Part shown: positions 6,559 to 9,500 of the stretch, piece by piece
How positions within the stretch are numbered: the stretch's first letter is position 1
How the letters are laid out: each line of letters starts with the position of its first letter
Assembly: GCA_964551375.1 (NCBI GenBank)
Contig: CAZKBG010000001.1
Coordinates: 390,001 to 422,000 of the forward strand
Source: an uncultured archaeon
Lineage (GTDB): Archaea; Iainarchaeota; Iainarchaeia; Iainarchaeales; JAAZKV01
Reading direction: 5' to 3'
Length of the DNA stretch: 32,000 nt
Position numbers and translations under genes: made by a program
The notes under the pieces: model-generated
What the model was told of the DNA's origin: nothing
Seen by the model: the letters and a program-made list of their open reading frames with translations, nothing else
The model's database searches: none

Positions 6559-9500
6559 TTATAAATTAATTTTTTTTCCTTTTTTATTCCTGCCCAAAAG
6601 AATAAACAGGGCAACAAGCGCAACTATTATCAAAACAAAAGGATTTGAATCAGGAACAGTCACTGTCTCGGGCTTTGGAATCTCTAAACTTACCCCTGCT
6701 GGAGAAACATTAAAGCTTGCAACAGCCCTGCATGCAGAACTGTTAAAATCAATGAACAAATCATACGAACCGGCCGCGTTTGAATCAAAAGTCGAGGACA
6801 CATTTACTAAAGAACCTGCTGGACAGTTTATGTTATATGAAGGATTCACATAGCTTTGCGCCACTATTGCTGAATTTCTTTTCAAAGTAATTAAATTAAC
6901 TGCCGTCTGCCTTGTGCAGGAAATCGCAAAATTAACATCAGTTTTATTATTTGCTTTTGGGAGAATCCTTAAATTTGAAACCAAAAATCCAAGAGAAGAA
7001 CATCCGCTTGAATTGTTTTCATAAATCACAGGGTTATTTGAATCACACCCTTTTGTAATAACTTGAATCTGTTTTGTGCAGGACAAAGGGACATTATTGT
7101 ATAAACCCCCGTAGTAATATTCAATTGAATAAATTCCTTCAATATTTGAATCATACACCACTCTTGAAGTCTGAACGGTTTCATTGCAGTCAGTTATTCC
7201 AATAAAACCGCTCACAGGCATTACAAACTGATTGGCATTCTTGACCTGCGCATTAAAAATTCCTAAATTCCAATCTTCATCAATATGCGCATTATTTCTT
7301 GCGCAAGAGATTCCAGAGATAACTGATGTTTTTCCTTCAGGATTATTTACACAAACAGATTCAGGAGGAGAAACAACAACAGTAAAATCAGGGCAGTCAG
7401 GATTAAACGGAGTTTCAAGACTGCACTTTTTATTTGAAACAGGCGAATATTCAATTCCATCAAATACCCTGCCTTCAGAGCAAAAGTCTCTTTCCATTGT
7501 AAGAGTCTGGGAAAATACTCCGCTTGAATCAGCAGTATTGAAATCCCCTTTAATTAAATTAGTCCCGTAAGACGCAGGCGGCAGATTCACATCAGCCACA
7601 AAAATTCTCGCAAAGTAAGACAAACTCTGTCCGCCTTCAGCCACTATAAATACATCAGGATCAACTCCAGAAGAAACTCTTGTAAAAATAAGCCTGCTTA
7701 AATTATCCCTGTCAATACTTGCCATCACAGCTTTTTGAGGAATAGTATTAACCACTTCAATATATCCGTTCGGAGCCGAAGTGTCTCCGTCCCAGCTTCC
7801 TTTAGGAGTCCAAGTTGATAGCGATGCTGAAGACAACACATCATTAAAGAATGAATCATTAATTTCTGCAGAGCAGTAAAATCTCGTGCCTACAGGATAA
7901 GTGTGAGAAGTGGAAGGATAATTTGTTATTTGAAAAGGCACAGTCACTGTCGCTCCGCTTAACATTGTTCCGCTAGCCTGCCCCGCAACCACTGGGGCCA
8001 TACTTGGGCGCTTAGCAAAAAGTTTTATAGTATAATTAATCTGCGGAGTGTCAGCATCATGCGAAGCAAAAGAACAGGACAACTCTTCGCCAGGATCCCC
8101 GCCTGAATTGAAATGATTCCTCAAATATTTTGTTCCCTGAAGCTGCCCGCCCGCAGTGCTGTTCCAAATAGTAATGTTATCAACAACAGGAAGACAATTG
8201 CTTGTCGCTGAATTAACATCAATAATCCCGTCAAACACGCTTACCATTATGCAATTATCAAGCGCGCGGTTAAGATCCGATTTTACAAAAGAATTGGATG
8301 TTGAATAAGGAACCGCAAGCGTCGGAGGGGAACCAAAAATATAAACTCCGCCCGAATATTTTAACACCTGGCCTGTAACAAACACATCAGGGTCAATCAC
8401 AGGCCCAACATAAACTCGCATTGAGCCTGACAAAGCATTTTTGTCAGTAGAAGGCGACATTTGAGGAATTGAAGGAATTGTATTTTGAATATTTAAAAAC
8501 TGGGCATTTGGATCGCAGACAATTGAAGTAATTGAAACCTGAGTGGTCGTAGTTGTAATTAAACCTTCAGAATCAGTGGCAATTAAATTTAAATCAAAAG
8601 TTCTTGAATTAACATTAGTGCATGTTAATTGAGCAGTGTTTATTTTCACAACCCCTCCGTTTTGAGAAGTCACTACTGAATTAATTATTGAACAATCAGC
8701 CGGAGCAACTGCCCACATGCACCCGTTAGCTGATGCAATAGTAGTTTTATTTGCAGTGCACTCCCCCACAATATTTATTGTAAGAACTGTGGCTGTTGAA
8801 ACAATTGAAGTAGTATAAGGCGCAGCCCTTTGAGTTGCCTGCGGAGGAAGCTTAACTTTTTCCCAAACACACGAATTATTGCAGAACATTGTCTGGTCGC
8901 CGTTTAATGTACCATTAATGCACTGAAAACCCTCATCTCTGCTTCCGTCACAATCATCATCAGCGCCGTTGCAAATCTCCGCAACTCCGCTCACATTAAC
9001 ATACGCGCACCCATTGCATTTTTTTCCAGTTGTATTTGCCTTACACACCCCTATTGCAGAACATTCACTTGGAGCCCATTCGCAGCCAGTGCATCTTTGA
9101 GAAAAATTTCCGCTGCATTGATTTAATACTGAGCAAGTTGAAGCCTGCCAGCGGCAATTATTGCAAATCTGGGTATTTCCCGCCCCGCACTGCCCGTCAG
9201 TGCAGGAACAACAGCATGAAGGGCTTTTGTCAAGACAGAGATTTACTTTATTTGCGCCATTTTTGCACTTAGCGCAATAATCACCATCGCCAGTGCAAAC
9301 GCACATTTGTTCATTGTAATTTAAATCAGGCGAATCGCATGAGTCATACATATTATAAAAAGGAAAATCGCCGACATACATCTGCCCAAAATAAGGCTGC
9401 CCATTAGGCACTCTTGTTTTGTCATAATAATAAGAACAGTTATAATCTCCGCCAGTTATATTCATCGCGCCTTGAGTATAAGTCGCATTTGGCGCAACAC

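Follow-up and report, generated by a model that had tools for sequence, protein, structure and literature searches.

A candidate archaeosortase-type C-terminal sorting signal, in two forms, on secreted proteins of Iainarchaeota

Two secreted proteins with a common C-terminal tail

The window analysed here is a 32,000-nucleotide stretch of DNA (G000:C1:390001-422000, G000 being the genome that holds it) from an uncultured archaeon of the phylum Iainarchaeota. It contains two genes for Cys-rich secreted proteins, referred to as the 1000-aa protein and the 397-aa protein, that end in similar tails composed of a short motif, a hydrophobic helix and a basic stretch (Table 1). We propose, at a probability of roughly 60%, that these tails represent a tripartite C-terminal sorting signal of the exosortase/archaeosortase type, which would be specific to Iainarchaeota and occur in two forms, with a small archaeosortase named here ArtX1 as its most likely enzyme. 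The Iainarchaeota are uncultured DPANN archaea with tiny genomes that probably rely on contact with other cells; annotation is lacking for nearly all of their surface proteins.

Table 1 Tail-bearing genes, tail elements and candidate enzymes. Locations without a prefix are positions in the window; the others are given as genome:contig:positions.
Feature	Location	Strand	Details
Gene of the 1000-aa protein, Cys-rich, secreted	6559..9579	-	about 1006 aa; ATG at 9579
Tail 1 (1000-aa protein)	6562-6660	-	reads TVPDSNPFVLIIVALVALFILLGRNKKGKKINL; stop codon at 6559-6561
Tail 1, signature motif	6643..6657	-	V-P-D-S-N; directly abuts the helix
Tail 1, hydrophobic helix	6592..6642	-	PFVLIIVALVALFILLG; 17 residues; Kyte-Doolittle mean 3.6
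Tail 1, basic cytoplasmic tail (predicted)	6562..6591	-	RNKKGKKINL
Gene of the 397-aa protein, Cys-rich, secreted	26080..27273	-	signal peptide MKKLLILLFILIAASLVFA
Tail 2 (397-aa protein)	26083-26178	-	reads TIPDNNIFVLLVLLAGIIFIVTKNKGNKRLKK
Tail 2, signature motif	26161..26175	-	I-P-D-N-N
Tail 2, hydrophobic helix	26113..26160	-	IFVLLVLLAGIIFIVT; 16 residues
Tail 2, basic tail	26083..26112	-	KNKGNKRLKK
Third carrier	G000:C1:261611-265279	+	1222 aa; ends ...SIPDNNLIAV...KRRN
Fourth carrier, PKD-domain protein	G000:C1:835956-839423	-	1150 aa; ends ...SVPDNGIIVI...KRRN
ArtX1, small archaeosortase paralogue	G000:C1:832095-832640	-	182 aa
ArtX2 (name given here), small archaeosortase paralogue	G000:C2:50834-51472		213 aa; pilus or giant-protein locus
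434-aa C-terminally anchored protein (comparison case)	10476..11780	-	outside the signal class

Translation of the window confirms the tails that the initial annotation had described for both proteins. The 1000-aa protein begins with the signal peptide MKNKFFLSLAVLAVLFLFLQTALA; a TTG at 9600, upstream of the ATG, gives an alternative version of 1013 aa (minus-strand open reading frame (ORF) 6559-9600). Searches of this protein against Pfam returned nothing but a sub-threshold MopE-like Cys motif. When the two proteins are compared by BLASTP, the tails are the sole aligned part (E=4e-4; next best 0.2).

A third anchored protein of the window, of 434 aa, serves as a comparison. Its C-terminus consists of EPQTGGMGNGG, a transmembrane helix and KKRAKK, so that a Gly-rich stretch stands before the helix and the motif is absent, as had been noted initially. 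The end of this protein (10476-10600, minus strand) reads SEPQTGGMGNGG, followed by the helix and KKRAKK. A genome search with the LPXTG_anchor model gives this end 18.2 bits (cut-off 15.9) but hmmscan gives 13.1 bits, and because no sortase gene occurs in the 151 genomes of our phylum sample, this match is probably spurious and driven by the helix. A gene for a HerA/DUF87-type ATPase (5226-6533, minus strand) lies 25 nt downstream of the gene of the 1000-aa protein and belongs to one strand run with the genes of a 294-aa and the 434-aa surface protein.

Carriers of the tail within the genome

G000 comprises 1.09 Mb on 10 contigs with 38% G+C. Six small contigs (C3, C5, C7, C8, C9 and C10) have 45-59% G+C, compared with 38% on the two large contigs, and are probably binning contaminants of this metagenome-assembled genome. 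The pattern [VI]PD[NST][NSG] was scanned across all ORFs of at least 150 aa, about 340,000 residues, and occurs eight times. Four of the eight occurrences lie 25-32 residues from the C-terminus and abut a hydrophobic helix, where about 0.2 would be expected; the tail match in the window is therefore more than chance. The four carriers, namely the two window proteins and those of 1222 and 1150 aa, are all Cys-rich and possess an N-terminal signal peptide, and about nine other C-terminally anchored proteins in the ORF scan have no motif. The search for further motif proteins that had been suggested for the genome and its relatives thus yielded carriers with the motif at the same position in both.

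Two forms of the tail across Iainarchaeota

Tail profiles were built from the four G000 tails, then from 23 tails (A2), and were finally broadened (A3). At E<=0.01, the A2 profile matches all 14 sampled genomes of the genus and 21 of 25 of the family, designated f1. Matches that cover the motif positions were present in at least 16 of the 18 genomes of the first genus sample, and the other genomes of the genus hold one to six model matches each. Pro and Asp are invariant in the 23 tails, the remaining positions being 18-43% identical. One genus member carries a 518-aa ORF (G006:C25) that ends in ...ANIDDNNFLVV..., where Asp replaces the Pro that is invariant elsewhere; this tail may be a natural variant that has lost the signal, or it may reflect an error of assembly.

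Across the phylum sample, the A3 profile matches 48 of 151 genomes. These include 20/25 in f1, 6/7 in f2, 7/13 in f21, 4/12 in f17 and 2/3 in f14, together with single genomes of f4, f9, f18 and f27. The A2 profile finds next to nothing in families f19 (0/17), f16 (1/20) and f3 (1/15), which act as internal negative controls. Matches outside the family first revealed a sister form, [VLI]-P-E-T-[NS], that is found in most other Iainarchaeota families. Its tails read VPETS, VPETN, IPETN, IPETS, VPEAN or VPEAS among the A3 matches, and LPETN in G040, a complete f2 genome of 10 contigs with seven proteins that end in L-P-E-T-N, a helix and a Lys-rich tail.

A set of 63 unique tails falls into the two forms [IV]-P-D-[NS]-[NS] and [VLI]-P-E-T-[NS]; it was gathered by regular expression, so that the Pro and Asp/Glu columns are fixed by construction. 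The hydrophobic span measures 15-19 residues, the basic end holds two to six Lys or Arg, and the Pro stands 21-32 residues from the C-terminus. Of the 36 PD-type tails, 33 have Asn or Ser at position 5. PDNN is the version peculiar to this family within a broader Phi-P-[DE]-x-[NS] signal (Phi, hydrophobic), of which PDNN and PETN are two forms.

A portable signal and a shared terminal module

A BLAST comparison of 38 carriers, each represented by its last 300 residues without the tail, yields 14 clusters. Half of the carriers (19/38), among them the 397-aa window protein and the 1222-aa and 1150-aa proteins of G000, form a single cluster, joined by a membrane-proximal module of about 100 residues that ends in a Cys-x-[KR]-x-x-[YF] strand. 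Within it, the 397-aa and 1222-aa proteins have about 116 C-terminal residues in common (E=8e-8). Of the initial description of the window pair as otherwise unrelated, the part that concerns their direct comparison stands, as only the tails align; the 397-aa protein has relatives of its own through this module. The module also speaks for an alternative in which a C-terminal domain-plus-anchor unit was inherited or shuffled among paralogous surface proteins, and the tails would then be similar by shared ancestry, with no dedicated signal.

The 1000-aa protein and 13 other clusters, however, show no detectable link to the module. Orthologues of the 1000-aa protein come from two further genera of the family and share 23-34% identity across the final ~300 residues, where P-D-S-N is their only invariant four-residue block, and orthologues of the 397-aa protein read IPDNN (G004), IPDTN (G157) and IPDSN (G017). 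Furthermore, the PDNN and PETN forms switch wholesale between families across unrelated carriers, which points to a common reader rather than to descent. Because the motif is the only invariant block in diverged orthologues and the carriers form 14 unlinked clusters, we consider it portable and under selection of its own, and shared ancestry as the full explanation is very improbable. The preference for a dedicated signal expressed in the initial annotation gains support here, with at least 14 protein groups that lack any BLAST link once the tail is removed. The comparison argues that the tail is a real, conserved and portable signal under selection, which appears to have spread in part by descent of the terminal module.

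The tail in relation to modelled signal classes

The initial annotation had also recognised the architecture of exosortase/archaeosortase substrates, and this is borne out: the motif abuts the helix without a spacer and the basic tail follows. The motif likewise adjoins the helix without a spacer in PEP-, PGF- and GlyGly-CTERM signals, unlike in LPXTG (preprint 10.1101/2023.06.07.544157). The 63 measured tails form tripartite extreme C-termini on proteins with signal peptides, several unrelated carriers occur per genome (four in G000, seven in G040), and the same genomes encode an enzyme of the exosortase/archaeosortase family with conserved Cys, Arg and His.

None of the available class models describes the tails. 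At E<=10, the PGF-CTERM model (TIGR04126) matched no G000 tail and the PEP-CTERM model (TIGR02595) matched nothing in G000. The resemblance to VPDSG-CTERM that had been pointed out holds for the letters of tail 1, V-P-D-S-N against V-P-D-S-G, but not for membership, as the VPDSG-CTERM model (TIGR03778) matched none of the four G000 tails even at E<=10; in G000 it hits just two places, at 10.7 and 9.9 bits, neither of them on a tail. Across five genomes, the PEF-CTERM (TIGR03024) and VPxxxP-CTERM (TIGR04143) models gave no match on a tail, and the LPXTG model aligns to helix positions only, never to the motif. An hmmscan of 14 tails against all of NCBIfam returned nothing on PD-type tails; PE-type tails reached no more than 12-15 bits, with Loki-CTERM, Heimdall-CTERM or PEP-type models, in each case under the cut-off. 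Searches of the literature on archaeosortases in DPANN/Iainarchaeota and on VPDSG-CTERM yielded no account of the signal. Reading the motif as an N-x-S/T glycosylation sequon was rejected, as there is as a rule no Ser/Thr at +2. By sequence, the tail belongs to no modelled C-terminal sorting class and is best described as an uncatalogued, putatively archaeosortase-type signal of Iainarchaeota.

Candidate archaeosortases

The archaeosortase or exosortase homologue that such a signal calls for, and which the initial annotation had proposed to look for, is present in G000 as two paralogues, ArtX1 and ArtX2. Both pass the TIGR04178 exosortase/archaeosortase signature with 36.4 bits each (cut-off 23), and PF09721 places them in the same enzyme family with 34-35 bits, over its cut-off. 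Neither reaches the cut-off of any archaeosortase subfamily model; ArtX1 scores 53.1 bits on ArtD (TIGR04175, cut-off 125), 23.3 on pacearchaeosortase (NF033505, cut-off 80) and 19.6 on ArtA (TIGR04125, cut-off 75). An alignment of 13 sequences retains C-T-G, N-x-x-R and H, with C90, R132 and H150 of ArtX1 invariant. They coincide with the Cys, Arg and His that are held to be catalytic in this family (preprint 10.1101/2023.06.07.544157), Cys-173 of ArtA being such a position (PMC7157517). The AlphaFold model of ArtX1 (predicted local distance difference test, pLDDT, 85) consists of four long helices and a β-hairpin. According to this model and the positive-inside rule, C90, R132 and H150 would face the outer side, where the motif is expected to sit. 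A fold search of the model against the PDB found no solved relative; the best hits, oestrogen-receptor domains at E=0.5, are meaningless.

Processing by another class of protease, either a classical sortase or a rhomboid/rhombosortase-like enzyme, might be suggested by the likeness of LPETN to LPXTG and by a rhomboid-like ORF in G000 (G000:C1:179044-179460) that scores 22.3 bits, close to the Pfam cut-off of 22.6. We regard it as hardly credible, given that Sortase (PF04203) has no match over the cut-off in the 151 phylum genomes and no sortase domain occurs in G000. In addition, the LPXTG model does not reach beyond the helix positions, there is no spacer between motif and helix, and the tails are not Gly/Ser-rich, unlike those of GlyGly-CTERM.

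Association of the tail with ArtX1

ArtX1 is encoded in 141 of the 151 genomes and ArtX2 in 123. No tail-positive genome lacks ArtX1 (48 of 48), and the 10 genomes without ArtX1 are all free of tail matches. The proposed check for co-variation of enzyme and motif is consistent with ArtX1 in this respect, yet weakly informative, because a nearly universal gene discriminates poorly. The link between tail and ArtX1 is drawn from gene neighbourhood and from the absence of alternatives.

ArtX1 has a tail-bearing gene at a distance of 3-8 kb in 11 genomes, drawn from two families (f1: G000, G016, G009, G157, G014, G011, G139, G008 and G001; f2: G147 and G040). G000 and G040 share a conserved block in which SecF-SecD are followed by ArtX1-CarS-DUF92-S3Ae-S15-RIO. 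At this locus (G000:C1:826000-842000; G040:C3), ArtX1 stands back to back with secF-secD and forms one strand run from carS onward through DUF92 and the ribosomal proteins S3Ae and S15 to the RIO-type kinase. The tail-bearing genes that neighbour ArtX1 in the two genomes have no BLAST link and occupy opposite sides of the block, which argues against simple inherited synteny. The gene carS adjoins ArtX1 in G000, where ArtX1 comes immediately after it, and in G040, and also directly precedes an ArtX1 homologue (46% identity) in a metagenome-assembled genome of Candidatus Iainarchaeum sp., in support of the assignment to Iainarchaeota. CarS, the CDP-archaeol synthase, makes CDP-archaeol, the precursor of PssA/PssD lipids.

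ArtX2 is a competing candidate for the enzyme of the tails. It passes TIGR04178 equally well, keeps C-T-G, N-x-x-R and H, and is widespread. A search for it at E<=1e-8 was, however, negative in at least six tail-positive members of the family (G008, G006, G014, G009, G101 and G161; 79-89% complete), although ArtX2 orthologues within the family score below 1e-34, and no tail-bearing gene lies within 10 kb of it in the genomes compared. Furthermore, a protein of about 1500 aa in G000 and G040 bears a different tail, NLPSMPE followed by a transmembrane helix and basic residues, and is encoded 11-16 kb from ArtX2 in G040. Processing of the tails by ArtX2 is improbable on these grounds, and we favour ArtX1 as the most likely enzyme.

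This second conserved tail is seen in G000 on a 1562-aa ORF that starts near C1 position 89054 (plus strand), where it reads FNLPSMPETAAG, a helix and RYKRKRK, and in G040:C10 at about 76251-80775 (minus strand), where ...FNLPSMPEG precedes a helix and KKN. The NLPSMPE-tailed protein may be a dedicated client of ArtX2.

Proposed processing and membrane anchoring

We postulate, by analogy with ArtA of Haloferax volcanii, that a tail-bearing protein would be exported by Sec through its N-terminal signal peptide. Its C-terminal helix would then keep it temporarily in the membrane, leaving the basic tail on the cytoplasmic side and the Pro-Asp/Glu motif at the outer face. There the motif would meet the Cys/Arg/His site of the small archaeosortase, which would cut off the helix and basic tail and transfer the new C-terminus to an archaeol-based lipid. 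Cleavage, its site and the attachment of the lipid are thus modelled on ArtA. ArtA requires PssA and PssD for processing, and in Methanosarcina the genes artA, pssA and pssD lie in synteny (PMC7157517, PMC6098224); the adjacency of carS and ArtX1 can be seen as a parallel to this arrangement. A PssD homologue (phosphatidylserine decarboxylase, PF02666) was not found in G000, which encodes a single CDP-alcohol phosphatidyltransferase (C1:340769-341203), and the set of lipid head groups appears from the gene content to be minimal.

The tail could instead be a permanent, uncleaved membrane anchor, in which Phi-P-[DE]-x-N serves some other juxtamembrane function, for instance by capping the helix, by contacting an S-layer or partner protein, or as a recognition site for a modifying enzyme. 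In favour of this reading, other anchored proteins of G000 have plain transmembrane tails, PssD is missing from this genome as noted, and archaea without an archaeosortase keep some S-layer subunits anchored by a C-terminal membrane helix (PMC6098224). On the other hand, the position, spacing and chemistry of the motif (hydrophobic-Pro-acidic, no spacer) match cleavage signals of the PEP-CTERM type, and the motif recurs as a portable element on unrelated proteins. Helix and basic tail are free to vary, whereas the Pro and the acidic residue of the motif are conserved; the motif is not a glycosylation sequon, and two dedicated archaeosortase genes would otherwise be left without visible substrates. 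We consider an uncleaved anchor unlikely.

Several points weigh against an archaeosortase-type signal read by ArtX1. ArtX1 meets no archaeosortase subfamily model, even its best score, on ArtD, being 53 bits where 125 are required, and cleavage and lipidation of the tail-bearing proteins are proposed by analogy with ArtA. As PssD was not found in G000, the genome has no obvious source of the ethanolamine lipid suggested as acceptor for ArtA. The near-universal presence of ArtX1 makes co-occurrence a poor discriminator, and ArtX1 is present without a detected tail in four of eight genomes of genus g14 and alongside the 0/17 tails of f19; such genomes may hold undetected forms of the signal. The genomes that show the gene linkage are related and hence not independent, and the S3Ae, S15 and RIO kinase genes that intervene are housekeeping genes, so part of the linkage may be inherited synteny. 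Finally, the terminal module in 19 of 38 carriers indicates that some of the spread of the tail came by descent or module shuffling.

A bolder extension of the archaeosortase-type signal is a distinct, phylum-wide pathway of lipid anchoring, in which a carS-coupled mini-archaeosortase would act on Phi-P-[DE]-x-N and the change from PETN to PDNN would reflect co-evolution of enzyme and clients. As PssD is absent, archaetidylethanolamine would not be the acceptor; archaetidylserine, or a head group derived from CDP-archaeol and produced next door, would be examples of an alternative. We offer this tentatively and regard it as rather unlikely. If true, the tail would mark lipid-anchored surface proteins, probably host-contact proteins, of symbiotic archaea, and the anchor chemistry would differ from that of Haloferax.

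Implications

New in this analysis are the recognition of the PDNN and PETN tails as forms of a single signal, the phylum-wide distribution of the signal and the evidence that favours ArtX1 over ArtX2. A phylum-specific tag with a candidate enzyme provides a simple sequence rule for listing surface-displayed proteins, namely Phi-P-[DE]-x-[NS] followed by a 15-19-residue helix and by Lys or Arg, and hidden Markov models from alignments A2 and A3 could be used in annotation pipelines. To our knowledge, the archaeosortase system has so far been studied experimentally only in Haloferax. To this system our proposal would add a new form of signal and an unnamed archaeosortase subfamily, and the pairing of carS with artX1 is a second and independent example of the coupling of an archaeosortase gene with lipid synthesis.

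Relation to named sorting systems

The LPXTG/sortase A system of Gram-positive bacteria shares the tripartite C-terminus with the Iainarchaeota tails, and the sister form L-P-E-T-N is one residue from LPETG. In contrast to LPXTG, the conserved core of the tails is Pro-acidic and not Thr-Gly, motif and helix have no spacer between them, the model aligns to the helix only, and no sortase-fold gene occurs in the 151 genomes. VPxxxP-CTERM/archaeosortase B, PEF-CTERM/archaeosortase C, Loki-CTERM and Heimdall-CTERM of NCBIfam are archaeal and have the same general layout, and some Iainarchaeota tails fit V-P-x-x-x-P by coincidence (VPDSNP, VPETSP). No tail is matched by the VPxxxP- or the PEF-CTERM model, however, and the 12-15 bits on the Loki- and Heimdall-CTERM models (cut-offs 19.9 and 24) come from PE-type tails only and mainly from the helix.

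VPDSG-CTERM, a bacterial signal associated with exosortases, resembles tail 1, in which V-P-D-S-N is followed by the helix; it differs in position 5, which is Asn or Ser in 33/36 PD-type tails, and in domain of life and enzyme subfamily. The PEP-CTERM/exosortase system (XrtA and relatives) has a similar hydrophobic-Pro-acidic core before the helix (VPEP compared with VPET/VPDN), one enzyme for many substrates, and an enzyme of the same family, PF09721. This is a bacterial system that requires an outer membrane and is associated with exopolysaccharide loci. Its motif has a second Pro, which the Iainarchaeota tails lack, and PE-type tails reach only about 15 bits on PEP-type models.

The PGF-CTERM/ArtA system of Haloferax volcanii and methanogens differs in its motif, P-G-F in place of Phi-P-[DE]-x-N, and its model matches no tail. 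ArtX1, with 182 aa and four long helices as against the 271 positions of the ArtA model, scores 19.6 bits on that model (cut-off 75), and the PssD associated with ArtA was not found in G000. The two systems are alike in that an archaeal tripartite signal is carried by Sec-exported surface proteins, and their enzymes are members of one family in which Cys, Arg and His are conserved. In both, the sortase gene stands beside a gene of lipid synthesis, as artA-pssA-pssD in Methanosarcina and as carS-artX1 in Iainarchaeota (PMC6098224, PMC7157517).

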